Below, one piece after another: positions 8,790 through 26,423 of a stretch of DNA of 64,000 bases. A program made the translations under genes and the position numbers. Each line of letters starts with the position of its first letter. Positions within the stretch are counted from its first letter, which is position 1. This DNA is from Candidatus Woesearchaeota archaeon. Lineage in GTDB: Archaea > Nanobdellota > Nanobdellia > Pacearchaeales > GW2011-AR1. The stretch spans positions 50,205 through 114,204 of the forward strand of contig CAZSPD010000002.1 in NCBI GenBank assembly GCA_964608765.1, in the 5' to 3' direction. Under the pieces are notes generated by a model. That model did no database searches and was not told the origin of the DNA. It worked only from the letters and a program-made list of their open reading frames with translations.

Positions 8790-9224
8790 ATGGATTTAAC
8801 ATTAATAATATTTATTTTAGTACTTTTGATAAGCATAGTTATATCTTATTTAGTTGGCAAAAAAACAGGGGCTTTCCAAAGAGATAAGCATTGGGAAAAA
8901 GAATTACCTGTTCAAAGAAAACAAGCAATAACTCAGTCAAGGGCAGTTCTTGGTGGACAATTTTCAGAACAGCTTTCACCTTATCTTCCTAATTTTAATT
9001 ACTCTCCAACAGAATGCAAATTTATTGGAAAACCAATTGATTTTATTTGTTTCAAAGGAATGGATGAAAAAGAGATAAAAGAAGTTATTTTTGTTGAGGT
9101 AAAAAGCACTAAAAAATCAAGTCTCACTCCCCAAGAAAAAAATCTTAGAGAAGCAATAGAAAAGAAACAAGTAAAATGGGAAAGGTATGTTGTCCCAGAA
9201 GAAGTTACTAAAAAAAGAGAGTAA
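8790..9224 (+). CDS. Membrane-anchored PD-(D/E)xK endonuclease related to archaeal Holliday junction resolvase
   Basis: N-terminal TM helix, then PIDFICF...VIFVEVKSTKKSSLTPQEKNLREAI, a D...(E)VK pattern as in the Hjc-related endonuclease family. Confidence 0.45.
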   Translation: MDLTLIIFILVLLISIVISYLVGKKTGAFQRDKHWEKELPVQRKQAITQSRAVLGGQFSEQLSPYLPNFNYSPTECKFIGKPIDFICFKGMDEKEIKEVIFVEVKSTKKSSLTPQEKNLREAIEKKQVKWERYVVPEEVTKKRE

Positions 9225-10459: not shown

Positions 10460-10696
10460 TTATTTTCCACAGCCACAAGAACCTGTTCCTGAAACTGCTC
10501 CGCAAGTTGCAAGTCCGCAATTACTTTCAGCACTGCATCCATTTCCACAACCAGAACAACTTATTGTTTTAGCCGGGGTTATAATGTTATCTGATTCTAC
10601 ATTATTGTCTGTACTATTTGAGATAGCACTAACAACTGCAAACCCTCCAATAACGAGGATTCCAAGCACTATTGAAGCGATTATCCATGTTTTCAT
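10460..10696 (-). CDS. Signal-anchored cysteine-rich peptide
   Basis: N-terminal TM/signal segment, then CSGCGNGCSAESNCGLATCGAVSGTGSCGCGK (9 Cys in the last 32 residues). Confidence 0.5.
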   Translation of the reverse strand: MKTWIIASIVLGILVIGGFAVVSAISNSTDNNVESDNIITPAKTISCSGCGNGCSAESNCGLATCGAVSGTGSCGCGK

Positions 10697-10880
10697 TTTA
10701 AACCTCCCAGTTAATTTAATTAAAATTTACAAGAAAGTATCATATAATAGCGGTTTGGTGAAACTAGTTTCATTGATTAATTAATTGAATTAATGAAGAA
10801 GAAAGGAATCTGTGAAGAATTTTCAATGATAAATTTCATGAGCTTGCAGTCTAAATTCACAAAAGGGGAACCAACAGAAA

Positions 10881-10890
10881 AGTTTAAAGG
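10881..10890 (+). promoter_or_regulatory. Putative BRE/TATA element of the hsdM operon
   Basis: AGTTTAAAGG has its TTTAAA ending 22 nt before the hsdM ATG. The same AAAGTTTAAA motif precedes the ORFs at 9560 and 41387 at the same distance. Confidence 0.35.
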
Positions 10891-10910
10891 TTAGAGATTT
10901 TTAGAGGATT

Positions 10911-12437
10911 ATGGAAAATAATTCCAACATTGGTCTTGAGAGAAAACTTTGGGCAGCTGCAGATAAACTTAGGAGTAATATGGATGCTGCAGAGTATAAG
11001 CATGTTGTTTTAGGACTTATTTTCTTGAAATATATATCTGATTCTTTTGAAGATGCATATAAAGAGATTAAGGCTGATCCTGATGGAGATCCTGAAGATA
11101 TTGATGAGTATAAAGCGAGGAATGTCTTTTGGGTTCCGCTTGAGAGTAGGTGGGGTTATTTACAGAAGAATGCAAGGCAACCAACAATTGGCAAACTTGT
11201 GGATAGTGCTATGGATGCTATTGAGCGTGAAAATACTTCATTGAAAGGAGTTTTACCAAAAGATTATGCAAGAGAAGCATTGGATAAAACCCGTTTGGGA
11301 GAGTTGATTGATTTAATTGGAACTATTGGTCTTGGAGATAAGGCAAGCAAGGGCAAAGATATGTTGGGTCAAGTTTATGAGTATTTTCTTGGACAATTTG
11401 CAGATGCTGAAGGAAAAAAGGGAGGTCAATTTTACACTCCAAAATGCATTGTTAAACTTCTTGTTGAAATGATTGAGCCATTCAGAGGAAGAATTTTTGA
11501 CCCTTGCTGCGGTAGCGGGGGAATGTTTGTTCAATCAGAGAAGTTTGTTGAAGAGCATTCAGGAAGAAAAGGAGACATTTATGTTTATGGTCAAGAGTCA
11601 AATTCTACTACTTGGAAACTTTGTAAGATGAATATGGCGATTAGAGGCATAGATTCAAATATCCAATGGGGAGATAGTTTGCATGATAACAAGCACAAGG
11701 ACTTGAAAGTTGATTATATTCTCGCGAATCCTCCTTTTAATGATTCTGACTGGAATGGGCATTTGTTGAAAGATGATGTTCGTTGGAAATATGGAGTTCC
11801 TCCTACAGGGAATGCGAACTTTGCGTGGGTTCAGCATTTTATTCATCACCTCTCTCATAGGGGAATTGCAGGGTTTGTTTTAGCTAATGGCTCTATGTCC
11901 TCAAATACTGGAGGTGAAGGAGAAATAAGAAAAAGAATAATTGAAGATGATTTAGTTGATTGTATGGTTGCTTTGCCTTCTCAGTTGTTTTACAATACAA
12001 TGATTCCTGCATGTTTGTGGTTTCTAACTAGAGACAAGACCAATCATGGCAAGAGAAAAAGAACAAATGAGATTTTGTTTATTGATGCAAGGAACATGGG
12101 GACAATGATTGACAGAAGGCACAGAGAATTAACTGATGAAGATATAAAGAAAATAACTGACACTTATCATGCCTGGAGAGGAGAAGAAAAATCAGGAAAG
12201 TATGAAGATGTTGCGGGTTTTTGCAAATCAGCAACTCTTGAAGATGTTGAAAAGAATAATTTTATCCTCACACCCGGAAGATATGTTGGTGTTGCAGAGG
12301 AAGAAGACGATGGCGAGCCTTTTGAGGAGAAGATGAAGAGATTGACTGAAGAATTGAAGGGTCAGTTTGAAGAAGGGAAGAGGTTGGAGAAGGAGATAAA
12401 ATTAAATTTGGAGAAGATTGGTTGGAGTATTAAATAA
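10911..12437 (+). CDS. hsdM: Type I restriction-modification system, methyltransferase subunit
   Basis: N-terminal HsdM domain ([32 protein letters not shown]), AdoMet motif [10 protein letters not shown] and catalytic motif LANPPFN. Confidence 0.95.
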
Positions 12438-12470
12438 GTATTAAAACTTAACTAACTTGGAAGATATAAT

Positions 12471-13793
12471 ATGCTTACAAAAATTGATATAGAAAAATTG
12501 ATTGTAAATCCTGAAAATTATAGGTTTGATCCAGTGGATACTCAAAATCAGGCAATTGAGTTAATGCTTGAAGAGAAAAATGAAGAAATTTTTAATTTAG
12601 CAAAACACATAATTGAAAATGGATTAGATAAAGCAAAAAATCTGAGAGTAGTGGAAATAAAAAAAGATTTATTTAAAATTCTTGAAGGAAATAGAAGAAT
12701 AACTGCGATAAAATGTTTATTGGACCCATCAGTAATTAAAAGTGATTCTTTAAAAAATAAATTTAAAAAATTAATTGACGAATCAAAAAAAGAAAATAAG
12801 GTGATTCCAACCAAGATTAGTTGTTTTATTTATAAAAGCGAAGAAGAAGCAGCTAAATGGATTAAACTGGATCATACTGGAAAAAATAAGGGAGTAGGCC
12901 TTGATGAATGGGGCCCTGCAGAAAAAGAAAGATTTGCTTATAAGTTTGAGGGAAAGATAAGTCCTGCTATGCAAATTGTAAATTTATTTGAGGTAGAAAC
13001 AAACTCTAAGATTGACAAAAATAAATTAAAAATTTCTACAATAAATCGTATACTTTCTAATTCCGAGTCTAGATCCTATTTAGGAGTAGACATAAAAAAT
13101 GGAAATTTAGTATTAACGTCAAATAAAAAAGAGGTTTTGGGAAGGATAGACAAACTATTTAATAAAATGTTGACAGAAGATATTACAGTTTCTGAAGTTT
13201 ATCATACAAGTGATTCTATTAAATTTATGAAAAATTTATTTGGAGAAAAACCTGTTGCATTAAAGAAAAAAACAGTAGTCCAATCCAAAATTTTGCAGGA
13301 TAAAAAAATTAAGAAAGTAAATATTTTGCCTAAAACAAATGGTAGAGAAGTTTTAATTCCTTATTCGTGTGGATTGATTATTCATGAAAAAAAAATTAAT
13401 AATATTTACCATGAATTAAGAAATCTTTCAATTTCAGAATATACAAATGCTGTAGCTGTTCTTTTTAGGGTATTTTTAGAGACTAGTTTAGATTGTTATG
13501 CTGAAAAATACGGGATGCAATTTAACAACCTTACTAAACTATCTGGTAAAATAACCAAAGTTGCCGACGAATTAGAAAAGGGAAAGACTGCCACAAATAA
13601 TCAATTAAAAAACATTAGAAATGTTGCTACAAAAACAAATTCTATTTTATCAATAGGAAATTTTCATGAATATGTTCATTCCTTTAAAAGTCAACCAATA
13701 CCCAGCGATTTAGTTTATTCATGGGATAATTTACAGGAATTCTTTGAAATTATCTGGGGAGAAATCTCAAGGAAAGAAGGTAAAACAAAATGA
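12471..13793 (+). CDS. ParB/Srx-fold N-terminal domain protein with an unassigned helical C-terminal half
   Basis: LIVNPENYRFDP and ILEGNRRITAIKCL resemble the ParB N-terminal box and the GERRxRA-type arginine patch. 440 aa. Its stop overlaps the next gene's start (ATGA). Confidence 0.55.
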   Translation: MLTKIDIEKLIVNPENYRFDPVDTQNQAIELMLEEKNEEIFNLAKHIIENGLDKAKNLRVVEIKKDLFKILEGNRRITAIKCLLDPSVIKSDSLKNKFKKLIDESKKENKVIPTKISCFIYKSEEEAAKWIKLDHTGKNKGVGLDEWGPAEKERFAYKFEGKISPAMQIVNLFEVETNSKIDKNKLKISTINRILSNSESRSYLGVDIKNGNLVLTSNKKEVLGRIDKLFNKMLTEDITVSEVYHTSDSIKFMKNLFGEKPVALKKKTVVQSKILQDKKIKKVNILPKTNGREVLIPYSCGLIIHEKKINNIYHELRNLSISEYTNAVAVLFRVFLETSLDCYAEKYGMQFNNLTKLSGKITKVADELEKGKTATNNQLKNIRNVATKTNSILSIGNFHEYVHSFKSQPIPSDLVYSWDNLQEFFEIIWGEISRKEGKTK

Positions 13794-14638
13794 CATTTTA
13801 TTCACCATTAAGATATCCAGGCGGGAAAGGAAAATTAGTTAATTATTTTAAAAAAGTATTCAAAGAAAATTCTCTTGATAAGGGGATTTATGTTGAGCCT
13901 TACGTTGGAGGAGCATCAATTGCACTTTCACTTTTAATTGAAGGCTATGCATCAAAGATAATTATTAACGACAAAGATAAATCAATTTATGCTTTTTGGT
14001 ATTCTGTTTTAAATTATCCAAATAAATTATGCAACTTGATAAAAAAAACTCCAGTCAATTTAAAAATAAGAGAAGAACAAAAAAAGATTCAAGAAAACAA
14101 AGAAAAAGAGAATTTACTGACAGTAGGTTTTTCCACTTTTTTCCTTAATAGAACAAATCATTCGGGAATAATCAAGGCAGGGGCAATAGGGGGATTGAGC
14201 CAAGAGGGGAAATGGAAGATTGATGCAAGATATAACAAAGAAGAATTGATTAAAAGAATAAGGCAAATCTCTAAATACAAAGATAAAATTGAACTTTATA
14301 ATGAAGATGCAGTTGATTTAATAAAAAAACTCAAAAAAAAATTACCTTCAAAAACCTTAATCTATCTTGATCCTCCATATTATAACAAAGGAAAAGAACT
14401 CTACATGAATTATTATTCTGATGAAGACCATAAAAAAATAGCTAAAGAAATAAACAAGACAAAAAAACAAAAGTGGGTTATCACGTACGATAATGTTGAA
14501 TTTATTAAAAAATTATACGAAAATAATAAACAAACAAAATATGATTTATATTATAGTGCAGGAAAACCGAAACAAGGAAAAGAATTAATTATCTTCTCTG
14601 ATAATGTTAAAGAACTAAACCCGATGATGGTGAAATAA
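13790..14638 (+). CDS. Dam-family (D12 class) N6-adenine DNA methyltransferase
   Basis: LRYPGGKGKL, EPYVGGASIAL (AdoMet motif) and LDPPYY (catalytic DPPY). Confidence 0.85.
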   Translation: MTFYSPLRYPGGKGKLVNYFKKVFKENSLDKGIYVEPYVGGASIALSLLIEGYASKIIINDKDKSIYAFWYSVLNYPNKLCNLIKKTPVNLKIREEQKKIQENKEKENLLTVGFSTFFLNRTNHSGIIKAGAIGGLSQEGKWKIDARYNKEELIKRIRQISKYKDKIELYNEDAVDLIKKLKKKLPSKTLIYLDPPYYNKGKELYMNYYSDEDHKKIAKEINKTKKQKWVITYDNVEFIKKLYENNKQTKYDLYYSAGKPKQGKELIIFSDNVKELNPMMVK

Positions 14639-14639
14639 A

Positions 14640-15266
14640 ATGAATAAGAGAGGACAATCAGTAGATGTAACTGGAATAATTGGAGTAATTCTTTCTTTGT
14701 TTTTTGTGATTATATTTATTTCTGCAATAATTCCGGTGTTTAATTCTATTAATGGAAATGATGATTTACAAAAAGAGATAAATAATAAAAATAATCAAAT
14801 ATCTAATTTAGAACTTGAAAATTCTAAATTACAAAATTCCATTGGAGAATTAAATTTAAGAATAGTTGAGAAAGATAATCTAATTTCAAATTTAAGTTGG
14901 CAGTTTAGTGAAAAGGAAAAAAATTTTACGGAATCATTTAATCAAATTATCACGGAAAAAGAAAAATCAATTTCTAATTTAGGTGAACAATTAATTGAAA
15001 AAGATAAACAAATTGAAAATTTAACAAACGAGCTTGAAAATTACAGAGAAAAAGATTATCTGCCATCAATAAATAATAATTATTACAATATCTTAAATTA
15101 TATGGGAAGTATTGAAAACAAATTTTATACAATTAACCTTGCGGTTGGATTAATCTCTCTAACTCTTACAGGAATTGTAATAAAGTTATTTGGTTTGGAT
15201 GTTAAAATTAAATTTCTATTTAGGAAACTTAAAAGGAAAAAGGAGAAAAAAGAAAATGTTTCCTAA
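14640..15266 (+). CDS. Coiled-coil protein with N- and C-terminal TM helices
   Basis: TM helix at residues about 10-33, a heptad-rich N/E/K/L middle with the recurring ISNL motif, a second TM near the C-terminus and a basic tail. Confidence 0.5.
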   Translation: MNKRGQSVDVTGIIGVILSLFFVIIFISAIIPVFNSINGNDDLQKEINNKNNQISNLELENSKLQNSIGELNLRIVEKDNLISNLSWQFSEKEKNFTESFNQIITEKEKSISNLGEQLIEKDKQIENLTNELENYREKDYLPSINNNYYNILNYMGSIENKFYTINLAVGLISLTLTGIVIKLFGLDVKIKFLFRKLKRKKEKKENVS

Positions 15267-15441
15267 AAAAAGGAGAGTTAGTTTTTGGGCAACTAAAAAA
15301 ATTCCAAAAAAAGCTACTGTAAGCTTCAGAGATAGTTCTGGAAGAAGGGTTTCATTTACAGCTACAAAAAGGGTCCCGAAAAAAGTCAAAGTTAATTTTT
15401 GGGCTAGTAAATCCGGAAAGCCAATAAGGAGGAGGAGATGA
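15256..15441 (+). CDS. Small, highly basic tandem-repeat peptide (possible PIN partner)
   Basis: AGGAG lies 10 nt upstream of the ATG at 15256. Contains RRVSFWATKKIPKKATVSF and RRVSFTATKRVPKKVKVNF repeats. Its stop overlaps the PIN gene start. The longer 15190 start in the ORF track lies inside the previous gene. Confidence 0.4.
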   Translation: MFPKKRRVSFWATKKIPKKATVSFRDSSGRRVSFTATKRVPKKVKVNFWASKSGKPIRRRR

Positions 15442-15971
15442 TGAAAATTTACATAGACTCAAATGTCTTTGTATCTTATGTTAAGAGAGATGAGGGTCAG
15501 AACCATAAAGATTCTAAATCTTTTTTAGAATTTATATTGAGAAACAATTTTGAAGATGTTACTTTCTTTACATCAAGGTTTACAGAAGTGGAAGTAGGTT
15601 CTGCAGTTTATAGAAGAAGTAAACAACAAAATCAAGCCAGAGCAACATTACATCGTCTAACTCGTGCATGGGCAAATAAAATTTTTCCCTTGCCAGAGAA
15701 TCCATCGGAAAAAATTAAGATAGATAATTTAATAGTAAAATTGGTTGAAACTGCTCTAAATTATGGAACAACTTTTGGAGACACCATTCATGCAAACGAT
15801 GTAGAGAGCTACGATGTAGATTATTTAGTTACATGGAATCTTAGAGATTTTAAAAAACTAGAAAAGAAGATAAAGAAGGTTAAGGTCCTAACTCCTACAG
15901 GTATGCGGGAAATATTAGAGATGGGAAAAAGAAATAAACTCAAACAATCTGCAATAGGAAAAATAAAATGA
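15438..15971 (+). CDS. PIN-domain nuclease (VapC-like)
   Basis: IYIDSNVF (first Asp), TEVE, GDTIHANDVES and LVTWNLRDF follow the PIN acidic-residue order. Confidence 0.65.
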   Translation: MMKIYIDSNVFVSYVKRDEGQNHKDSKSFLEFILRNNFEDVTFFTSRFTEVEVGSAVYRRSKQQNQARATLHRLTRAWANKIFPLPENPSEKIKIDNLIVKLVETALNYGTTFGDTIHANDVESYDVDYLVTWNLRDFKKLEKKIKKVKVLTPTGMREILEMGKRNKLKQSAIGKIK

Positions 15972-16891
15972 ACCAAAAAAACAAAAAGCCAACTACAGCC
16001 AATTTGAAAAAGATACTTAAGAACCCTGATAAGATGACTGATTTTGTAAGAAAAAATCTACTTGGAAATAATCAATTTATCGACCTACTAACTAATTTTG
16101 ATAATTATTTTAATGAGTTAAAAAAACAAGACCATATTTGGAAAGAGAATTTAGTAGAAAATGAAGAGCTTGAAAAAAAGTATGAAGAGTTAATTAACAA
16201 AATTGATAGCATAGATAAAATCAACCCGCCAAATATAACGCCTCAGGAAGCGACTTTTGAAATGAATAAATTTTCAGAGAATAATATGTTTATCTATATG
16301 GAACTAAGTAAATTTATTGGTAAAAAGGAAGAAGATCCCATACCTGGAGACATTTATATTTTGGCCAATCTTTATCGGACAGTCTTAGAATTATATAAAA
16401 AAAATATGAAAGTTTGGCTTCCGAGTTTTGGCCAGTCTTTAAATGTTGGAAAAGGAACGATGAAGAAGTTAAAAAAAGGTAAAATTGAAATTGGAACATT
16501 CTTAGAACTGATTAAACAATTTGATAAGAATTTTCAAACAGATTATTATCCGACTTTCGTAAAATATATAGATTCTGATTTAAGAAATAAAATTGCTCAC
16601 GAACAATATTATATCGGAGAGATTTTGGTTAATATGCCTGATGGCTCCCAGGTAAGTAGCATTGGCTTTATAGGAGATGATAAAAAAATTTATTCTGCTG
16701 CAGATTTAATCAGTAAAATAAAAAGAGCTTACATATTTTTACTATTAACTATATTTAAGAATGGGTTTGGAAGATACGCATCATTATCGTCATCACAAAA
16801 CGATCTTGAAGAAATAAAGAAGAATCCTAAATTATTTGAGCAGGTTTTAAAAAAACAAATAGGAAATATGGGGAGCAAATATGCAAAATAA
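15968..16891 (+). CDS. Hypothetical protein with a HEPN-like Rx4H motif
   Basis: 307 aa. The C-terminal half contains DLRNKIAHEQYY (R-N-x3-H as in Abi-type HEPN domains). It has 4-nt and 11-nt overlaps with the flanking genes. Confidence 0.4.
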   Translation: MNQKNKKPTTANLKKILKNPDKMTDFVRKNLLGNNQFIDLLTNFDNYFNELKKQDHIWKENLVENEELEKKYEELINKIDSIDKINPPNITPQEATFEMNKFSENNMFIYMELSKFIGKKEEDPIPGDIYILANLYRTVLELYKKNMKVWLPSFGQSLNVGKGTMKKLKKGKIEIGTFLELIKQFDKNFQTDYYPTFVKYIDSDLRNKIAHEQYYIGEILVNMPDGSQVSSIGFIGDDKKIYSAADLISKIKRAYIFLLLTIFKNGFGRYASLSSSQNDLEEIKKNPKLFEQVLKKQIGNMGSKYAK

Positions 16892-17912
16892 ACCTAAGAA
16901 AACTGAAATGGGGAACTCAGAGAGAACTCTAATTATCTTCGATACAAATAATCTACAAAATACTCTTGATGGAGAATCGGATTATTCTACTTTTGACCCA
17001 AAAGGAGATATAAAGAAATTAAGAGATTTTATATCAAAAAACAATTTACAAGATAATATAATAATAGGATTGTCTGAAATTGTTTTAAAAGAGTATTGCA
17101 ACCATAGAAAAACTGATTTTATTAAAAAATTAGATCAATTTAAACAATTGCATTCAAAAATGAAAAATCTTAGTTGTATAAATTTTGACAACATTACATT
17201 TCCCCCAGACAATTTTGATTATGGAAATTATATTTATGACAAAATTAGAGAAATTGTTTCAAACGAAAATAGTATATTCATTTTAATTCCTATCGAAGAA
17301 GAAAAATGTGGCGAGATATTTAAGAAAATTTTATACAAATCAATAAATCATATTAAACCTTTTGATGAACGAGGTGATAAAGGTTTTAAAGATGCAATAA
17401 TTTTTGAATCATTAATAAATTTTCAGATAAAGAATAACTACGCAAAAGTTATTTTATTTAGTAAGGATTTAGGATTTTCTGAAGAATTAAGATGGGAATT
17501 TTCACGATTAACTGGAAAATTTTTAGATATAGAATCAAATTATGAGCTCTTAGAGCAAAATTTAATGGGAGTTTATCATTTAATAGTCAAATATCCGGAA
17601 CTTCTGAATCACTTGAAAACAGATTATTTCAAAGGACAATTAATGGACTATATGTCTGATTTTGAAGGACTCGGAATAAATAATTTTGAGATAATTAACT
17701 GCTGCTCAGGAATTGAAGATTGTAAAAAAGAAGATTTAGAAAAGTTTAGACAGGAAGAGTATTTAGAAGAGGTAATGGATAATTTTAAAATAGTTTCCTT
17801 AGAATTTGAAAATGATGGAAAAGAATATATTGCTGAAGTTTTATTTGATTTAAGCGTAAATGAGATTATTGGTGGAGGCTATGAAGGGAAACAGGAGGTT
17901 CAAGTAATATGA
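16881..17912 (+). CDS. PIN-like domain protein (DUF4935-like)
   Basis: LIIFDTNNL near the N-terminus and a later ERGDKGFKDAIIFESL resemble the PIN-like DUF4935 pattern. Its stop overlaps the hsdS start. Confidence 0.5.
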   Translation: MQNKPKKTEMGNSERTLIIFDTNNLQNTLDGESDYSTFDPKGDIKKLRDFISKNNLQDNIIIGLSEIVLKEYCNHRKTDFIKKLDQFKQLHSKMKNLSCINFDNITFPPDNFDYGNYIYDKIREIVSNENSIFILIPIEEEKCGEIFKKILYKSINHIKPFDERGDKGFKDAIIFESLINFQIKNNYAKVILFSKDLGFSEELRWEFSRLTGKFLDIESNYELLEQNLMGVYHLIVKYPELLNHLKTDYFKGQLMDYMSDFEGLGINNFEIINCCSGIEDCKKEDLEKFRQEEYLEEVMDNFKIVSLEFENDGKEYIAEVLFDLSVNEIIGGGYEGKQEVQVI

Positions 17913-19087
17913 ATGGGAAAATTAATCCTGACTGGGAAATTGCAAAAATAAAAGATATCGGAAAAGTTATAACTGGAAAAACTCCCCCCACTTCAAATAA
18001 AACTTTCTTCAATGGAAAATATCCTTTTATCAAAATTCCCGATATGAATAATTCTGTCTATTTGTCTTTTTCAGAGAGTTCTTTGTCTGAAGAAGGAGCA
18101 AGTCATATGAAAAATTTAATTCTTCCCCCGGACTCTGTAATGGTTTCTTGTTTGGCAACGATTGGGAAAGTGGGAATTACTACAAAAGAATCTTTTACAA
18201 ATCAACAAATTAATTCAATTATTCCAAATAAAAAAATCATTTCTCCCTTGTGGATTTATTACTTTTTTAAGAATAATAAAAATTATTTAGAAAGTCTTGG
18301 TGGCGGAGGTTCAGTTTATATTAACATCTCTAAAACAAAATTTGAAAATGCAGTTATTCCGCTTCCCCCTCTCCCCGAACAACTTGCCATCGCCTCCATC
18401 CTCTCCTCCCTTGACGCAAAAATAGAACTCAACAATAAAATGAACAAAACCCTTGAAGCCATTGGGCAGGCATTGTTTAAGAAATGGTTTGTGGAAAATC
18501 CTGAGAAAGATAATTGGAAAGAGGGGAAATTAGGTGATATTGTGAAATTAAAAATGGGAATTTCTCCAAAGGGGGAAAGTTATAATGAAACAGAAACCGG
18601 TGTTCCATTACTTAATGGGGCGGCAGATTTTTCTGGGAAACTAATAATCCCAAAAAAGTTTACATCCGCTCCAATTAAAATGTGTGATGTCGGAGATTTA
18701 ATTTTTTGTATTAGGGCAACAATCGGAAATATTACTTTTGCAGATAAAAAATATTGTCTAGGGCGAGGTGTTGCCGCATTAGAAATACAAAAGGGATATC
18801 GAGAATTTGTTTATTACCTATTAAATTCTTCATTAGAAGAAATGGTATCTGGGGCATATGGGAGTGTAATAAAAGGGCTATCAAAAATAGATATAGAAAA
18901 TCTAAAAATTACAATTCCGGACAAAGAAACAATATTAAATTTTAATAAAATTTGTTTTCCTATTTTTGAAAAACAATTCTCACTAGATAAACAAAATCAA
19001 ACTCTCTCTCAAATTCGGGATGCGTTGTTGCCTAAGTTGATGAGTGGAGAAGTGAGGGTTTCATTATGTGAGGAGAATATAAAATGA
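17909..19087 (+). CDS. hsdS: Type I restriction-modification system, specificity subunit
   Basis: Two target-recognition halves separated by the conserved central region LPPLPEQLAIASILSSLDAKIELNNKMNKTLEAIGQALFKKWF. C-terminal conserved region LSQIRDALLPKLMSGEVRV. Confidence 0.9.
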   Translation: MNGKINPDWEIAKIKDIGKVITGKTPPTSNKTFFNGKYPFIKIPDMNNSVYLSFSESSLSEEGASHMKNLILPPDSVMVSCLATIGKVGITTKESFTNQQINSIIPNKKIISPLWIYYFFKNNKNYLESLGGGGSVYINISKTKFENAVIPLPPLPEQLAIASILSSLDAKIELNNKMNKTLEAIGQALFKKWFVENPEKDNWKEGKLGDIVKLKMGISPKGESYNETETGVPLLNGAADFSGKLIIPKKFTSAPIKMCDVGDLIFCIRATIGNITFADKKYCLGRGVAALEIQKGYREFVYYLLNSSLEEMVSGAYGSVIKGLSKIDIENLKITIPDKETILNFNKICFPIFEKQFSLDKQNQTLSQIRDALLPKLMSGEVRVSLCEENIK

Positions 19088-19386
19088 GTTTATTTGGCAA
19101 TTTATTTAATTTTAATATAAAAAATTTAATTATTCAAGGAAGAGTGGATATTGCCTACGATAAAATATATAATATGGCAGAAAAAATAACGGTCCATGAG
19201 TTAAAATTGCATCAATCCAATTTAGTTCATAAATATGGAACCAAAGCAATACAAGGAAAAAATTATAATCTTTTGGAAGAGGTGAGTAAATTGGAAAATT
19301 GGAAATTTAAAAGAATTCAATATCACATAAACGAAATGAAAGAATTATTAAAATTAAGAGAAAAATTAAAGGAGAATAAAGGATAA
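19084..19386 (+). CDS. Hypothetical helical protein
   Basis: 100 aa, ATGA overlap with the hsdS stop. No motif. Confidence 0.4.
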   Translation: MSLFGNLFNFNIKNLIIQGRVDIAYDKIYNMAEKITVHELKLHQSNLVHKYGTKAIQGKNYNLLEEVSKLENWKFKRIQYHINEMKELLKLREKLKENKG

Positions 19387-19694
19387 ACTTCTATGAAATT
19401 TTAATTTTAATTATCGCTGGAGCAGTAGCGATAAGATTTACTTTTAAATTTTATTTAAACAGATATTTAGAAAATAGAAGAAAAATAAAATTAGATCAAC
19501 TAAAAAATATTTGTCCGCATTGTAAAATTGAATTTTTAGGCAACAAACAAATTAAAGTTGAATCTTATTTTTCATCACCAATTGGAACTACGCAATGGGT
19601 TTGTTCCAGATGTAATTGTATTGTAGAATCAGATCTTGGTATCTTGAGCCTTAAATTAGTATACTTTCAAGTATACTACTCTAGATTATACTAA
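19380..19694 (+). other. Open frame without a canonical start codon, encoding a TM helix plus CxxC...CxxC zinc ribbon
   Basis: The frame opens right after a TAA at 19377-19379 and runs to a TAA at 19692-19694. Translation: INFYEILILIIAGAVAIRFTFKFYL...CPHCKIEF...WVCSRCNC. There is no ATG, GTG or TTG in the first 80 codons, so it is absent from the ORF track. Confidence 0.3.
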
Positions 19695-19785
19695 ATTTTC
19701 TGATTTAATATTTACTATTAATTTATTACTTTCTTTATCAAATATCCTAAAACAGTATTTGCCTAGGAAGAGATAATTTTATAAA

Positions 19786-19807
19786 TACTATCAATTTACT
19801 ATCAATT
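19786..19807. repeat. Perfect tandem direct repeat TACTATCAATT x2 upstream of the AlbA_2 gene
   Basis: Read directly: 19786-19796 and 19797-19807 are identical. A degenerate third copy, TACTATTAAT, lies at 19817-19826, and three TATACT copies lie at about 19660-19692. Confidence 0.9.
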
Positions 19808-19832
19808 AATATTAAATACTATTAATAGTAAA

Positions 19833-21212
19833 ATGGACATAGACCAAGTCTTAAGAGTCATAGAATCTGGAGAATCTCAAGAAGTTGAGTTTAAAGAATC
19901 ATTTCATAGTTCTCAAGATTTTTCAAAAATAATGTGTGGATTTGCAAATACTTATGGAGGAGTTATTCTGATAGGGGTTAATAATAAAAAAGAGGTTGTA
20001 GGAGTAAAAGATAATTTAGACAGCCTTCAACAAAAAATATCTTCTTCAGCTCAAGCAGTTTCTCCTCCGATATTTCCATCAATAGAAACTCATAAAATTA
20101 AAGGAGCGGACGTAATATCTATAGTTATACAGCAAGCAATAGACAACACATTTCATAGTTTTCAAGGAGTTATCTATGTAAGGATTGGCAGTACTTTAAG
20201 AAAGATAGAAGGAAATCAAATAGTTGATTTCTTGCGTGGGAAACAAATTCTATGTTTTGATGAAACTATAAGTAACGCTAAACTTACAGATTTGGACCTT
20301 AATAAAATTAAAGAATATCTAAATATAAGGAAACAATCAGATTATTTTAAATCTCATTCCAGTGAGGATTTTTTGTTAAGCATGAAATTGGCTTCAAAAA
20401 ACGGAGAGTTTAAAGTAAAAAACTCTGCCTTACTGTTTTTTGCTAAAGACCCAATCTTCTTTAATCCCCAAATAGAAATTAAAGCAGTTAGATTTGACGG
20501 CACAGAACCAGTTAAAATAATTTCCCATGAATTAATCCAATCAAATTTGACCGAATCAATTGAAAAGGCTTTATCTTTCGTAAAGAGTAATATTTCAAAG
20601 AGTATTAATATTAAGTCTGAGGCTAAACGAGAAGAGAAATATCAATATCCTTTGGATGTCATCAGAGAAGCAATAGTCAATGCAGCGGCTCACAGAGATT
20701 ATTTTAGTAAAGATTCTATTCAAATTTATATCTTTTCAGATAGAATAGAAATGACTAATCCTGGGTCTTTACCTAAGGATTTGCCTAAGGAGTTATTTGG
20801 CACCCTTTCTGTTCAAAGAAATCCTCTGACCTATAGGATTTTAAGAGATTATGGATTTGTTGAAGGCTTGGGATCTGGAGTTCCTAGAATGATTAATAGT
20901 ATGAGGGAACACGGCCTTTCTGATCCAGAATTTGGAATATATGAACATTTTTTCAGAACAATTTTGCGAAGCACACAAAGTGAACTAAAGCCCATTAAAA
21001 AATATCAAGACTTAAATGAAAGACAAATAAAAACCTTAGAATTTTTGAAGAAGAATAGATCCATAAAAACAAAAGCATATACAAAATTAAATAGAGTCTC
21101 TTTAGGTACTGCTAGGCTAGACATTAATGAGATGCTTAAATTTGGTTATATAAAAAAAGTAGGTGCTTTCAGGGGAGCCTATTATATACTAAATGAGGAT
21201 AATAAAAAATGA
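19833..21212 (+). CDS. AlbA_2 (Schlafen-like divergent AAA) / HATPase_c_4 / C-terminal wHTH protein
   Basis: [10 protein letters not shown] and [13 protein letters not shown] (AlbA_2), [13 protein letters not shown] and [11 protein letters not shown] (HATPase_c_4-like), and a C-terminal wHTH-like [21 protein letters not shown]. Its stop overlaps the hsdR start. Confidence 0.7.
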
Positions 21213-24200
21213 AAATAACAGAAAACGAAGTTGAAGGATTAGCACTGGATATTTTTAGAGAAATGGATTATAAAGTCCTTAATGGACTTGAAATATCTCC
21301 TGGAGGAAGTAAACAAGAAAGAAACGATTTCAGAGAAGTTATCTTAAAAGAAAGATTATTGAATTCTATTGGAAGAATAAACCCCAACATGCCTAAAGAC
21401 GCATTGGAAGATGCCATGAAAAAAGTTTCAAGAGTTTCCTCTCAAAACCAAGTTCTTGACAATCAACAATTTCACAAATTATTAACAGAAGGGGTTCCAG
21501 TATCTTTTAGAAAAGGGCAATCAACAAAACATGAGATTATAAATTTAGTTGATTTTGAAAATCCAAGCAAAAACGAATTTCTTGCAGTTAATCAATTTAC
21601 TATAATTGAAGGTAAGTGTAACCGAAGGCCAGACATAATTCTTTTTGTAAATGGCTTGCCTTTGGCAGTAATAGAGCTAAAGAATCTTGCAGAAGAAAAA
21701 GCAACAATTGATGATGCATTCACACAACTTCAAAATTACAAGATGCAGATTCCTTCCTTGTTTAGATTTAATGAAATTCTTATGATAAGTGACGGAGCAC
21801 TTGCACAGGCAGGGACAATTTCTTCAACAAGAGAGTGGTTTGTTGAATGGAAAACAATTGATGGTAAAATGCCAAAGAATAAGCTTAGTATGGATACATT
21901 ACTAAGAGGAATGTTTAACAAAAAAACCTTTTTAGATTTAATCAAAAATTTTATTGTTTTTGAAAAAGATGAAGAAACAATAAAGAAAATTTCTACTTAT
22001 GCCCAGTATAATGCTGTAAATAAAGCAATTGATTCAACAATAAAAGCAGTTAAAGGAAATAAAAAGGCAGGAGTTGTATGGCACACTCAGGGATCTGGAA
22101 AATCCCTTTCAATGGTTTTCTATTCTGGAAAACTCGCATTGGAAAAAGAGCTTGAAAATCCAACAATTGTTGTTTTAACAGATAGGAATGATTTAGATGA
22201 TCAATTATTTAAAACATTTTCAAGATGTTCTGAGCTTTTAAGACAAGAGCCAAAAAATGCAGGATCAAGAAAACAAATTAAAGAGCTTTTGAAGAAATCC
22301 TCTGGAGGCATTATTTTTACTACAATTCAAAAATTTTCTCCAGAAAAAGATGAAAAATTTCCTGAGCTTTCAGATAGAAGAAATATAATTGTTATTGCAG
22401 ATGAAGCGCACAGAACCCAATACGGTTTTTCAGCGCATGTTGTTCAAACGAAGGATGATGGAGCCCTCATAAGATATGGTTTTGCTAAATATTTAAGAGA
22501 TGCCTTGCCAAATGCTTCATTTATCGGTTTTACTGGGACACCTATTGAAAAACAGGACAGGTCAACTCCTGCTGTCTTTGGAAATTATGTTGATAAGTAT
22601 GATATACAACAAGCAGTTGAAGATAAAGCGACTGTTAAGCTTTTATATGAAAGTCGACTGGCTAAACTTGGGATAAAACCGGAAGAAAGAAGAAAAATTG
22701 ATCCCTTTATTGAAGAATTAACAGAAGATCAGGAAGTAAAGAATAAACTAAAGAGCAAATGGGCTAAACTTGAAAAGGTTGTAGGTAGTCCCGAGAGAAT
22801 AAGACGAGTGGCAAAGGACATTATTGAGCATTTTGAAGAGAGGTTGAAAGTCCTTGATGGAAAAGCCATGATTGTTTGCATGAGTAGAAGAATTTGTGTT
22901 GATTTGTACAATGAGATAATTTCTTTAAGACCAGAGTGGCACAACAAAGACGACAAAGAGGGAATAATAAAAGTAATCATGACTGGTTCTTCTTCTGATC
23001 CAACAGAATGGCAAGAACATATAAGAAACAAAAAGAGGAGAGAAAAAATTGGAGATATGTTTAAATCTCCTAAAGAAGAATTGAGAATCGTAATAGTTAG
23101 AGATATGTGGCTGACTGGTTTTGATGCTCCCTCTGTCCATACAATGTATATTGACAAACCAATGAAATCTCATGGACTAATGCAGACAATTGCAAGAGCA
23201 AACAGGAAATACAAAGACAAGGATGCGGGATTGATAGTTGACTATTTTGGAATTGGAAAAGAACTAAAAGATGCAGTCATGCAATATACTGCTAGTGGTG
23301 GAAAAGGCAAGCCTATTTTTGAACAAAGTGAAGCAGTCAAGAAAATGTTGGAAAAATATGAGGTTGTCAGAGATATGTTTTATGGATTTAATTATAAGAA
23401 ATTCTTTACCTTAAATCCAAAAGAACGACTTTCAGTAATTCCAAATGCTGTGGAGCATATTTTGAAGGGAAAAGAAAAATTAAAAGAAAGATTTATCAGA
23501 GAAACAAGCGCTTTAATTAGGGCATTTGCTTTGTCTGTTCCAGATGAAAAAGCAATGCAAATAAAAGAAGAAGTAGGATTTTTCCAAGCAATAAAATCAA
23601 CTATAGTCAAGAATACCATAATATCTTCAAAGGGCTCCATAGAATTTGATACAGCAATTAAGCAAATAATCTCCAAAGCAATCATCTCTGACAGAATAAT
23701 TGATATTTTTGAAGCTGCAGGTGTCCAAAAACCAGACATCTCAATCCTATCAGATAAATTCTTAAGGGAAGTCAAAGAAATTCCTCAAAAGAATCTTGCT
23801 TTTGAAGCACTGAAAAAACTAATCAATGACGACATAAAGGTAAGGTTTAAGAAAAATATTGTTAAAGAAAAATCATTCATGGAAATGTTAGATAAAATAA
23901 TAACAAGATATACAAACAAAAGCATTGAGGCGGCTGAAGCAATAGAAGAATTAATCGGATTAGCTAAGAAGTTTAGAGAAGAACAAAAAGAAGGAAAAGA
24001 TCTTGGCCTAACTGAAGATGAAAAAGCTTTTTATGATGCTCTTGCAGACTGTAAAGAGGCAATAGATGTTTTGGGTGATGAAAAATTAAGAATAATTGCC
24101 CTTGAACTAGTTAATATGATAAGAAATAATGTAAAAGTGGATTGGACAATTAGAGAAAATGTTCAGTCAGATTTAAAATTAAAAGTTAAAAGGATTTTAA

Positions 24201-24310
24201 AGATTCACGGGTACCCTCCTATTGGGAGAGAAAAAGCAATAGATCTTGTTTTAAAACAAGCTGGTGTTGTGGCAGATGATTGGGCAGAAAAGAACCTTTA
24301 TTTTGTTTAA
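21209..24310 (+). CDS. hsdR: Type I restriction-modification system, restriction (helicase-nuclease) subunit
   Basis: 1033 aa. N-terminal PD-(D/E)xK region ([20 protein letters not shown]), Walker [15 protein letters not shown] box [11 protein letters not shown], and a helicase C-terminal domain ([15 protein letters not shown]). Confidence 0.95.
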
Positions 24311-24975
24311 ATTTTTTCATCCTCAACCCAGCTCCAATAACTCTCTTTTCCAAGAATCACATGGTCAAGGACTTTTATGCCTATGAGCTCTCCGACTTCA
24401 ATTAACTTTCCTGTTATATCCAAATCTTCTTTGCTTGGATTTGGATTCCCTGAAGGATGATTATGAACAATAATCATTTTTGATGCTGAATGTTTTATTG
24501 CAGGCTTGAATACTTCTCTTGGGTGCAAAATTGCTGCATCAAGAACTCCCTTTGAAATAAGCTCCTCTTTTAAAATATTGTTCTGGCTGTTCAACAAAAC
24601 AACATAAAAATTCTCCTGTTTTTCATCTTTAAGCCTTTCACAAAACAGCTCAAAAACATCTTTGGCATTAGATATTTTCTTTACTGGTTTTTTTGACTGG
24701 GAATATCTCTTCCCAAGCTCTGCAATTGCCAGGATTTGCATTGCTTTGCTTGGACCTATCCCTTTTATTTTTTCAAGTTCTTTTAAAGAACAATCAAAAA
24801 GGTTTTCCAACCCATTTTCTTTTATCAGCCTGTTAGACATCTCAACAACATTCTCTCCTCTTGTTCCTGTTCTCAGGATAATAGCAAATAATTCAGCATC
24901 ACTTAATGCTTCTTTTCCTTGTTTTAAGAATCTCTCCCTAGGTTTTGAAGAATTTGGGAGATCTTTTATTTTCAT
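24307..24975 (-). CDS. radC: RadC-like JAB-domain protein
   Basis: HhH-like N-terminus ([14 protein letters not shown]) and JAMM motif [22 protein letters not shown]. Confidence 0.9.
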
Positions 24976-25488: not shown

Positions 25489-26022
25489 ATGACACGTAAG
25501 AATATCAAGCAGAATATTATAGAATATTTTTTTCTCAATCCGACAGCCAAGCTTAGGGTGAGGGAAATAGAAAGAACTCTAAAACTTCCTCTGCCTTCTG
25601 TAATAAGATATTGCAAAGAGCTTGAAAAAGAGGGCATCCTCTCAAATATTAAAACAGGGAGCATTTCGCTTTACACTGCAAATAAAATGGGTGAAAAATA
25701 CCTGCTTGAAAAAAAGCTCTTTAACATAAAGCGGTTATACGAATCAGGAATCATTGAATATTTAAAAATAGAAATTAGCAATCCTGCAATAATCTTATTT
25801 GGTTCTTTTGCCAGAGGGGAAGACACAGAAGGAAGCGATATTGATTTATACATAGAAACTCCCTCAAATAAAGAATTGGATTTAGGAAAATTTGAAAAAA
25901 TCCTAAAAAGAAAAATACAGGCATTAAAGCATAAAAGCCTTCATGATATACAGAACCTTCATTTGTCAAATAATATCATAAATGGCGTTCTATTAAATGG
26001 ATTCGTGGAGGTTTTCAAATAA
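25489..26022 (+). CDS. wHTH-fused minimal nucleotidyltransferase (MNT)
   Basis: N-terminal wHTH-like LRVREIERTLKLPLPSVIRYCKELEKEGIL, then the NTase motif LFGSFARGEDTEGSDIDLY. Confidence 0.8.
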   Translation: MTRKNIKQNIIEYFFLNPTAKLRVREIERTLKLPLPSVIRYCKELEKEGILSNIKTGSISLYTANKMGEKYLLEKKLFNIKRLYESGIIEYLKIEISNPAIILFGSFARGEDTEGSDIDLYIETPSNKELDLGKFEKILKRKIQALKHKSLHDIQNLHLSNNIINGVLLNGFVEVFK

Positions 26023-26423
26023 TGCGGGAATCAAACTGGGAAGAGTGCTTATTATGCAATTCTGCTAAAAAAGTCTCTCCGGATCCAAATCGCGCAAAAT
26101 CTCTAATTGAAACATCAAAAGAAAGGCTAAGTTTGATAAAAGAAATAACTGAAAAAAACTGCAACTTTGTATTTGAAGATTATTACACTTCCCTGATTGA
26201 GCTTCTCCAGGCATTAGCTTTCAAAAAAGGATTTAATATATTGAACCATGTTTGTCTTGGATATTATTTAAGAGATTTTATGAAAAGGGAAGAATTATAC
26301 CGGACATTTGATGATTTAAGATATAAAAGAAATTCCCTTACTTATTACGGAACTAAAATGGATTTTGAAATTGCAAAGCAAGCAATTCAAAATTGCAAAA
26401 AATTAATAGAAGAGTTAAAATGA
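26022..26423 (+). CDS. HEPN-domain protein (partner of the MNT)
   Basis: 133 aa, all-helical. DDLRYKRNSLTYYG resembles the RxxRNxxxY/H HEPN motif. Its start overlaps the MNT stop. Confidence 0.65.
   Translation: MRESNWEECLLCNSAKKVSPDPNRAKSLIETSKERLSLIKEITEKNCNFVFEDYYTSLIELLQALAFKKGFNILNHVCLGYYLRDFMKREELYRTFDDLRYKRNSLTYYGTKMDFEIAKQAIQNCKKLIEELK

Follow-up and report, generated by a model that had tools for sequence, protein, structure and literature searches.

A type I restriction-modification operon as a probable scaffold for nested defence genes in a Woesearchaeota archaeon

A 64,000-nt stretch of DNA from a Candidatus Woesearchaeota archaeon (the window; all coordinates are window positions) carries a type I restriction-modification (R-M) operon whose hsdM, hsdS, and hsdR genes are separated by about ten others. 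We propose that this cluster, at 10911-24310, is probably a nested defence island in which layered immunity is built on a shared, co-expressed hsd scaffold. A sequence-only reading had placed 12 open reading frames (ORFs) here on the + strand, and all of them are present at the positions it assigned. As it held, the three hsd genes are co-oriented, intact, and split by passengers, most of which have predicted nuclease or defence domains. The features of the cluster are:

10697-10910, + strand: divergent intergenic region, 214 nt, bounded by a minus-strand small ORF (10460-10696) and the hsdM ATG; candidate cluster promoter region
10911-12437, + strand: hsdM, type I methyltransferase subunit, 508 aa (Pfam, PADLOC)
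12471-13793, + strand: PD-Lambda-5_A homologue, 440 aa (PADLOC)
13790-14638, + strand: PD-Lambda-5_B homologue, Dam-type (D12) N6-adenine methyltransferase, 282 aa (PADLOC, Pfam)
14640-15266, + strand: transmembrane (TM) / coiled-coil / TM protein, 208 aa (hydrophobic N- and C-terminal segments in the sequence)
15256-15441, + strand: basic peptide with four (R/K)VSF repeats, 61 aa (ORF open from TTG 15190)
15438-15971, + strand: VapC-like PIN protein (PIN177), 177 aa (Pfam PIN below cutoff; conserved acidic residues)
15968-16891, + strand: 307-aa near-orphan protein with a 'DLRNxIAHE' (Rx4H, HEPN-type) motif
16881-17912, + strand: predicted PIN_12 (DUF4935) nuclease, 343 aa, abutting hsdS (PF16289)
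17909-19087, + strand: hsdS, specificity subunit with two target-recognition domains, 392 aa (Pfam, PADLOC)
19084-19386, + strand: 100-aa ORF (ATGA overlap with hsdS)
19383-19694, + strand: TM and zinc-ribbon (CPHC...CSRC) gene, probably decaying (ATA for ATG; 3' end replaced)
19695-19832, + strand: AT-rich spacer, 138 nt, candidate internal promoter for the AlbA_2 gene and hsdR (no Shine-Dalgarno-like sequence)
19833-21212, + strand: Schlafen-like AlbA_2, HATPase_c_4, and weak winged helix-turn-helix (wHTH) protein, 459 aa, COG2865 type (Pfam)
21209-24310, + strand: hsdR, restriction/translocase subunit, 1033 aa (Pfam, NCBIfam)
24307-24975, - strand: RadC-like JAB protein (RadC 1.1e-43), convergent with hsdR and overlapping it by 4 nt

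Judged by its domain content, the type I R-M gene set is intact, and we predict that it is active. HsdM, HsdS, and HsdR are full length by Pfam, PADLOC v2, and NCBIfam profiles. HsdM matches N6_Mtase (PF02384, 4.8e-115) and HsdM_N (PF12161, 6.1e-28) in Pfam and MTase_I (5.7e-231) in PADLOC, and it is 63-87% identical to its counterparts in more than 130 related loci. HsdS matches Methylase_S (PF01420, 1.6e-50) in two stretches and PADLOC Specificity_I (3.8e-87) over residues 8-385. The domains of HsdR are HSDR_N (3.8e-49), SWI2_SNF2 (7.2e-82; also ResIII), a T1R_D3-like domain, and T1RH-like_C (7.1e-121); the protein scores 650.8 bits against TIGR00348 (2.7e-195; cutoff 284.55), and its nearest solved structure is the HsdR of EcoR124I (1e-37).

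The genes of the cluster are tightly packed. The junctions are those described from the sequence: there are ATGA overlaps at 13790, 15438, 15968, 17909, 19084, and 21209, one pair of genes shares 11 nt at 16881-16891, and a single nucleotide separates another pair at 14639. With the basic peptide and the zinc-ribbon frame included, 9/12 same-strand junctions of the cluster overlap, compared with 7/50 in the rest of the window (Fisher p = 8e-5), and the packing is therefore real and above background. Co-orientation and overlapping stop and start codons suggest co-expression from a promoter near 10.7-10.9 kb. The sequence-only reading went further and described about ten translationally coupled genes. 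The tight packing stands, but one unbroken coupled chain is not shown, because a 138-nt spacer without a Shine-Dalgarno-like sequence precedes the AlbA_2 gene. This spacer contains a TATA-like 'ttttataaata' and 'ttaatattaaata', and it would be the most likely place for a second promoter. A sigma-70 promoter/terminator scan was at background (77 sites, with 64.6 +/- 8 expected), and as a bacterial tool it is not applicable to an archaeal host.

Split hsd operons are ordinary in this clade. For comparison, we retrieved 80 genomic loci via HsdM, onto which the window proteins were mapped, and 80 metagenomic loci with a PIN_12 profile built from 8 PIN_12 sequences (23-68% identity); the cargo comparison covers about 160 related loci (labelled L plus a number). 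Gap sizes refer to 64 relatives and counts of filled gaps to the 54 relatives with all three genes on the same strand, and a gap of at least 500 nt was taken to hold cargo. The order M-S-R on one strand is nearly universal. Only 8 of the 54 loci are uninterrupted; 46 have at least one filled gap, and 19 have both gaps filled. The M-S gap of the window (5471 nt) is near the maximum among the relatives (5742 nt), and its S-R gap (2121 nt) is ordinary. Cargo ORFs lie on the hsd strand in 100/128 cases. Embedding is thus the rule here, and the arrangement is not the unusual one that it had been taken for.

The cargo in these gaps consists largely of genes with defence-type domains. A Pfam census of the cargo returned HATPase_c_4 seven times, SLFN_AlbA_2, Abi_C, PIN_12, and SMC_N five times each, and AAA_21, AAA_15, and DUF3800 four times each; rarer families are YhcG, Fic, DUF3644, RhuM, Abi_2, Mrr, AbiJ, and GmrSD. 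PADLOC matches among the cargo include Old, AriA, NsnB, PDC-S02/S05/S19, SoFic, and mad3. Embedding of this kind has been described before, and the census agrees with the published picture. Payne et al. assembled a catalogue of 17,432 non-redundant genes nested within BREX, DISARM, and type I R-M loci and confirmed defence for 7 candidates embedded in Hma systems (Payne et al., 2024; bioRxiv 10.1101/2024.01.29.577857). The AlbA_2, HATPase_c_4, and HTH combination is their FAM_00002, the second-ranked embedded family. Earlier examples are TgvAB, embedded in the type I R-M cluster of V. cholerae VPI-2 (PMC11411939), and the C. jejuni rlo genes (Miller, 2005, as cited in PMC11411939). Like these guilt-by-embedding loci, the window cluster has co-oriented passengers with defence-type domains between hsd genes; unlike them, it is unusually heavily loaded, with about 10 ORFs and a 5.5-kb M-S gap, and its host is an archaeon. 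Defence genes nested in type I R-M operons are known already, and the present locus is an ordinary, though heavily loaded, example.

We envision the following organization. The scaffold would be a four-gene unit, hsdM / PIN_12 / hsdS / hsdR, that recurs in a subset of the hsd clade in archaea and bacteria, usually with RadC alongside. Two junctions, after hsdM and after hsdS, would be permissive, and independent cassettes could accumulate and swap there. The M-S slot of the window holds PD-lambda-5, the coiled-coil protein, a peptide/PIN pair with a VapBC-like layout, a candidate HEPN RNase, and PIN_12; in the S-R slot are the 100-aa ORF, the zinc-ribbon gene, which is probably decaying, and the Schlafen-like protein with its AlbA_2 and GHKL-ATPase modules. 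The type I enzyme would act first and restrict unmodified DNA, with PD-lambda-5 as a further layer of a restriction-like kind that would work independently of it. As candidate RNase or abortive-infection (Abi) effectors, the PIN, HEPN-motif, and Schlafen-like proteins may act once a virus evades restriction. Among the passengers, only PIN_12 is likely to be tied functionally to the Hsd proteins.

The first two passengers would form this independent layer. They had been read as a 'ParB-like' protein and a Dam methylase. The first has an 'EGNRR' motif that by eye resembles ParB. The second assignment holds (MethyltransfD12 6.2e-21 in Pfam), and the pair is reassigned by PADLOC as PD-Lambda-5_A (1.5e-117; residues 3-429 against positions 5-464 of a 466-position profile) and PD-Lambda-5_B (1.4e-120; residues 1-274 against positions 1-274 of 291). 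The 440-aa A protein has no match in Pfam, NCBIfam, or PDB sequences. PD-lambda-5 is a validated two-gene defence system, compact and 'RM+Abi'-like, that gives broad protection; it is known from an E. coli prophage, and its protection of E. coli does not require hsd genes (Vassallo et al., 2022; PMC9519451). The window pair resembles it in having adjacent, full-length A and B genes, here joined by an ATGA overlap, with a methyltransferase as B. Unlike the E. coli prophage system, it lies in an archaeal chromosome, directly after hsdM. PD-lambda-5 was found at the window locus and in none of the approximately 160 related hsd loci.

Downstream of this pair, the 208-aa TM coiled-coil protein has only weak coiled-coil (SMC-like) matches in Pfam, PADLOC, and NCBIfam. 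Homologues with 42-53% identity are present in L003, L004, L114, L153, L158, and L163, all downstream of hsdM and upstream of PIN_12 wherever the contig includes PIN_12.

The layout of the next two genes resembles that of VapBC. The basic repeat peptide is a real gene; homologues with the same four repeats recur and always lie directly upstream of a PIN gene: at 4236-4403 of L084 (in L084/L085) and at about 11893-12033 of L004. The peptide/PIN pair is found in three lineages, in the same slot. The most likely start of the peptide is an ATG at 15256 with AAGGAG upstream, rather than the TTG at 15190. PIN177 scores 19.3 bits against PF01850 (1.9e-3; curated cutoff 23.6) and is 43% identical to the PIN228 protein of L004. 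Residues D7, E52, and D115 are invariant across PIN177, L004 PIN228, and L084 PIN164, and the last of these scores 8.7e-11 against PF01850. As in VapBC, a small upstream gene overlaps the PIN gene (ATGA); the shared acidic residues point to a PIN toxin, although the PF01850 score is under the cutoff. Unlike VapBC, the upstream product is a very basic (R/K)VSF-repeat peptide without a known antitoxin fold: it matches no Pfam or PADLOC family and has no known antitoxin DNA-binding domain (AbrB, RHH, PHD, or HTH). A motif scan of 2.06 Mb on both strands did not find the (R/K)VSF-repeat pattern elsewhere.

The 307-aa protein is a candidate HEPN RNase. Against 5.8 billion sequences it retrieved only itself, and an exhaustive HMMER search of 1.84 billion representatives returned three weak, remote relatives. 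Both relatives that cover the region retain the motif ('LRNKIAHE' in the window, 'LRNSIAHE' in P0008, and 'LRNYIAHE' in P0009), and PADLOC gives a faint CARF_HEPN match (3.6e-4). An AlphaFold2 (AF2) model built from a 4-sequence alignment was unusable (pLDDT 41.1), a profile search of PDB sequences gave only noise, and an exact-sequence look-up returned only tiny Logan contigs without context. The ORF is present in none of the approximately 160 related hsd loci. The sole relative with usable context, at 7559-8888 of L087, is not part of an hsd locus. Its gene overlaps a 153-aa ORF on the upstream side, probably a membrane protein, with which it may form a separate two-gene cassette. That upstream gene was considered as a PIN protein and rejected as not PIN-like, and the equally placed 275-aa ORF of L004 and L114 was rejected as a counterpart of the 307-aa ORF because the two have no sequence similarity.

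In the S-R slot, the 100-aa ORF has no family match in Pfam, PADLOC, or NCBIfam and no homologue in the approximately 160 related loci. A zinc-ribbon gene lies directly after hsdS in L006 and L114, and the window frame is 64-67% identical to these genes (14358-14723 of L006 and 10142-10498 of L114). The window frame had been called start-less; its ATA aligns with the ATG of the homologues, which also have about 40 extra C-terminal residues. The junction of the 100-aa ORF and the zinc-ribbon frame at 19383-19386 reads ATAA, not ATGA; one G-to-A change would retain the upstream stop (TGA to TAA) and abolish the start codon that follows (ATG to ATA). At the 3' end, which is lost, similarity to L114 at the nucleotide level breaks off at 19633; it sets in again precisely at the hsdR ATG at 21209. 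This pattern argues that the lost end was replaced by the AlbA_2 cassette and that the zinc-ribbon gene is probably decaying.

The AlbA_2 protein matches SLFN_AlbA_2 (2.3e-24; 86.6 bits against a cutoff of 25.3), HATPase_c_4 (1.1e-19; 70.6 against 26), and, weakly, HTH_DeoR (8.7e-3); its PADLOC match is to a pAgo model and covers the AlbA_2/HATPase domains. By eye, 'E14...E19' is consistent with catalytic competence. Prokaryotic Schlafens are phage-triggered tRNases, and Mn-dependent activity of this kind has been shown for RorSlfn5 only (PMC13056530). The window protein shares with these proteins and with the SLFN-pAgo proteins that carry a GHKL ATPase (bioRxiv 10.64898/2026.05.29.728809) an N-terminal SLFN_AlbA_2 domain followed by HATPase_c_4. 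Unlike SLFN-pAgo (bioRxiv 10.64898/2026.05.29.728809), it has no Argonaute core and has a weak C-terminal wHTH match. In related loci, AlbA_2 proteins recur often but in varying positions: ahead of hsdM, in the M-S gap, or in the S-R gap. On the profile evidence, then, PD-lambda-5 and the AlbA_2/HATPase protein belong to described families, and no PADLOC v2 model, PDC models included, matched the TM coiled-coil protein, the basic peptide, PIN177, the 307-aa ORF, PIN_12, or the 100-aa ORF.

PIN_12 differs from the other passengers in its linkage to hsd. It matches PF16289 (4e-14; 53.8 bits against a cutoff of 32), and its acidic residues D21, E71, and D171 are invariant in 34 sequences. Its AF2 model is confident (pLDDT 86.6), with VapC toxins 3h87 and 3zvk as top Foldseek matches (probability 0.96 and 0.89), though at E values of only 0.036 and 0.07 and a query-normalised TM-score of 0.26. 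The N-terminal half is nearest to VapC toxins, and the C-terminal domain has no match among solved structures. Exact-sequence look-ups of the window PIN_12 and HsdR gave no match. In all 56 loci with at least 1.2 kb of upstream sequence, hsdM lies upstream of PIN_12 on the same strand, and hsdS lies downstream in 49 of the 50 loci with at least 1.5 kb on that side. The median extrapolated gap between PIN_12 and hsdS is -15 nt, and extra cargo, if any, lies between hsdM and PIN_12. The unit occurs in its compact form, as a four-gene hsdM / PIN_12 / hsdS / hsdR operon with overlapping genes, in Carnobacterium maltaromaticum (L173; GCA_033222045.1, 5488-12380), a cultured Firmicute and a tractable model for PIN_12 function. 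The Carnobacterium PIN_12 had no tblastn match among PLSDB plasmids. In a bacterium of the Candidate Phyla Radiation (CPR), Moraniibacteriota (L169; GCA_053613725.1, 2892-14937), the order is RadC, hsdM, AlbA_2/HATPase, PIN_12, hsdS, a 225-aa ORF, a Shedu-like SduA_C gene, hsdR, and Mrr, a heavily nested locus whose build resembles that of the window.

This linkage raises the possibility, which we regard as tentative, that PIN_12 alone is a true accessory of the R-M system, either a guarded effector fired by inhibition of the Hsd proteins or a modulator of HsdS/HsdM assembly, and that the other passengers are independent of it. Such a role would account for its flanks, for a junction with hsdS that abuts or overlaps, and for the compact Carnobacterium operon. 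The conserved acidic residues and the predicted VapC-like N-terminal fold fit an effector, the unmatched C-terminal domain could be a docking or sensor module, and no antitoxin-like gene cognate to PIN_12 was found in the compact loci. However, identity to the window is correlated between HsdM and HsdR (rho 0.74, p = 7e-9) and uncorrelated between HsdM and PIN_12 (rho 0.20, p = 0.12); the divergence of PIN_12 is likewise uncoupled from that of HsdR. This lack of correlation counts against a tightly co-evolving interface. Stand-alone members of PF16289 also exist, and PIN_12 is carried by about 9% of the present hsd clade (5-6/64 loci).

The prrC anticodon nuclease, held in check by its R-M host, had been offered as a precedent for the whole set of passengers. 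It is apt as a general idea, and it is tenable for PIN_12 only. In its host locus, prrC lies between hsdS and hsdR, whereas PIN_12 lies between hsdM and hsdS. Like prrC of the type Ic EcoprrI locus, PIN_12 is a predicted nuclease gene that is nearly exclusive to type I hsd loci, and the solved structure nearest to the window HsdR is that of a type IC enzyme, EcoR124I. No passenger has an ABC-ATPase or anticodon-nuclease domain, or a significant PrrC or RloC match in PADLOC or Pfam. PrrC is rarely found anywhere but inside type I R-M loci (Payne et al., 2024; bioRxiv 10.1101/2024.01.29.577857). A comparable location is seen for PIN_12 and fails for PD-lambda-5, the 307-aa ORF, and the AlbA_2 protein.

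One could envision a more specific and more speculative scenario, which we would not expect to hold in full. PIN_12 may be an unrecognised fourth component of a widespread type I clade (DPANN and other archaea, CPR, Omnitrophota, and Firmicutes), an analogue of PrrC that would be made in step with HsdS, would dock on or monitor the M2S1 complex via its C-terminal domain, and would cleave RNA when a virus disables restriction. In the same scenario, VapC-like PIN proteins would have in the (R/K)VSF peptide a novel kind of partner or antitoxin. Coupling of PIN_12 to the Hsd complex, if borne out, would give the prrC principle a second example, with a different mechanism and a far wider distribution.

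The history of the locus is consistent with a scaffold that exchanges cassettes. The closest relative of the window cluster, L114, has an HsdM 87% and an HsdR 84% identical to those of the window, and an Endonuc_Holl-like gene upstream and RadC downstream, as in the window. Its cargo differs in both M-S and S-R and includes a 189-aa ORF (NYN-like by eye), two other ORFs without known function, the coiled-coil protein, the 275-aa ORF, and a PIN_12 only 29% identical to that of the window. In L084, HsdM is 72% identical, yet PIN_12 is 66% identical. Nucleotide similarity is confined to hsdM, part of the coiled-coil gene, central hsdS, the zinc-ribbon gene, and hsdR-RadC. Within hsdS, similarity to relatives is limited to 18377-18538 (74-87%), and both target-recognition domains are unrelated, as expected under specificity-domain swapping. 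Cassettes may thus be exchanged between loci with the conserved hsd genes as homology anchors, in which case the window cluster would be the sum of several events.

Different histories for the hsd backbone and its cargo had been proposed from base composition. Synteny upholds the proposal, as cargo is shuffled among loci; composition does not. The three 60-nt samples are exact (GC 46.7% in hsdM, 38.3% in hsdR, and 26.7% in the ParB-like gene), but at the gene level the mosaic is mild and does not separate backbone from cargo. Host genes have a GC content of 29.4 +/- 2.9% and a third-position GC content (GC3) of 17.1 +/- 4.1%, and the cluster genes have a GC3 of 16-30%, which is elevated over most of the cluster and differs from passenger to passenger. 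We rejected a GC mosaic as evidence of origin: hsdM is the gene that stands out, and passenger values lie both above and below those of hsdS and hsdR. The synteny comparison that the sequence-only reading had proposed gives a mixed answer. PIN_12 travels with hsd, and PD-lambda-5 and the 307-aa and 100-aa ORFs do not recur. It had also asked whether passengers occur at unrelated loci, which is the case for one relative of the 307-aa protein (in L087) and not for the PIN_12 subfamily.

Such fluid content could also mean that the passengers are unrelated hitch-hikers, selfish toxin-antitoxin (TA) pairs and stray genes in a permissive, well-expressed, and mobile locus, that add no immunity. Content is highly variable among close relatives, and several passengers are lineage-specific. 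The zinc-ribbon gene is probably decaying, the layout of the basic-peptide/PIN pair is TA-like, and IS200-type transposases are present in the gaps of some relatives. We nevertheless consider this explanation unlikely. The cargo census returned mostly defence-associated families rather than transposases or housekeeping genes. Anti-phage activity has been established for PD-lambda-5 (PMC9519451), for the 7 embedded candidates of Payne et al. (bioRxiv 10.1101/2024.01.29.577857), and for Schlafen tRNases (PMC13056530). The near-obligate place of PIN_12 beside hsdS across archaea and bacteria would be hard to obtain by chance insertion.

Finally, that most or all passengers are latent toxic effectors held by HsdMS(R) and freed when restriction is blocked, as in EcoprrI/PrrC, is very improbable. 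In its favour, the passengers share the orientation of the hsd genes and lie close against them, RNase domains are predicted in several (PIN, PIN_12, the Rx4H motif, and the Schlafen-like AlbA_2), and PIN_12 is about as exclusive to type I loci as PrrC. However, most passengers occur or work without hsd genes, as seen in the activity of PD-lambda-5 in E. coli and in the location of the 307-aa relative; PD-lambda-5 and the 307-aa and 100-aa ORFs are missing from related loci, the position of AlbA_2 varies, the cargo of close relatives differs, the divergence of PIN_12 is uncoupled from that of HsdM and HsdR, and PrrC/RloC matches are lacking.

Several points weigh against the nested defence island that we favour. 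No function is predicted for the TM coiled-coil protein or the 100-aa ORF, the Pfam score of PIN177 is under threshold, and the basis of the HEPN assignment is a motif together with a faint match. Operon structure and the internal promoter are deduced from spacing only, with a bacterial tool as the sole promoter predictor, and recombination via hsd flanks is deduced from the positions of similarity boundaries. The PIN_12 profile was built from hsd-embedded members, and the count of 56/56 describes that subfamily rather than PF16289 as a whole. In Salinicoccus, a PIN_12 gene occurs on its own beside GmrSD, and hsd linkage is therefore a property of one clade and not of the whole family. DUF4935 genes are mostly monocistronic (Matelska et al., 2017; PMC5499597), and the sampled PIN_12 clade departs from this pattern in being hsd-embedded. 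The same study drew attention to PIN genes whose transcription is coupled to that of type I R-M subunits (Matelska et al., 2017; PMC5499597).

A nested defence island at this locus would add to the known cases of embedding an archaeon with a small genome, probably of the DPANN group, about whose viruses and immunity little is known. The window is chromosomal. It encodes proteins that score above the curated cutoffs of the archaeal models Dph6_archaeal (269 bits) and Dph2 arCOG04112 (284 bits), along with an archaeal-type GluRS, HisRS, ribonucleotide reductase, and ThyA. Its GC content is 29%, and the top HsdM matches are Woesearchaeota and Nanoarchaeota metagenome-assembled genomes (71-76% identity). 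By the logic of guilt by embedding, the coiled-coil protein, the basic peptide/PIN pair, and the HEPN-motif near-orphan are defence candidates, covered neither in PADLOC v2 nor in the literature that we searched. The hsdM / PIN_12 / hsdS / hsdR architecture, the basic-repeat-peptide/PIN pair, and the HEPN-motif orphan family are unreported, and none matches PADLOC v2. The PIN_12 clade, wedged between hsdM and hsdS across distant phyla that include a cultured Carnobacterium, is of particular interest.

The surroundings of the cluster also bear on its extent. Nucleotide similarity to L114 and L084 continues through hsdR into RadC, which therefore seems to travel with the hsd unit. It recurs beside this hsd clade in many unrelated genomes: RadC adjoins hsd genes in L006, L008, L015, L083-85, L114, L120, L010, L142, and L169. 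Just past RadC are a nucleotidyltransferase gene (25489-26022, + strand) and a small partner (26022-26423, + strand) that match PADLOC PDC-M05A (7.6e-14) and PDC-M05B (5.2e-7), with a layout like that of an MNT-HEPN pair. Since this PDC-M05-like pair sits beyond RadC, the defence island reaches past hsdR. Upstream of hsdM, an Endonuc_Holl gene (archaeal Holliday-junction-resolvase-related; 8790-9224, + strand) has a counterpart in L114 (2537-2974; 62% identity). It is about 1.7 kb from hsdM in the window, compared with about 0.35 kb in L114, and the window interval holds three + strand ORFs and the minus-strand small ORF at 10460-10696, which is Cys-rich. HsdM and HsdS also match the PADLOC MADS models mad2 (1.3e-49) and mad5 (2.1e-59), and five cargo ORFs in relatives match mad3; MADS-type systems and the present hsd clade may share components.

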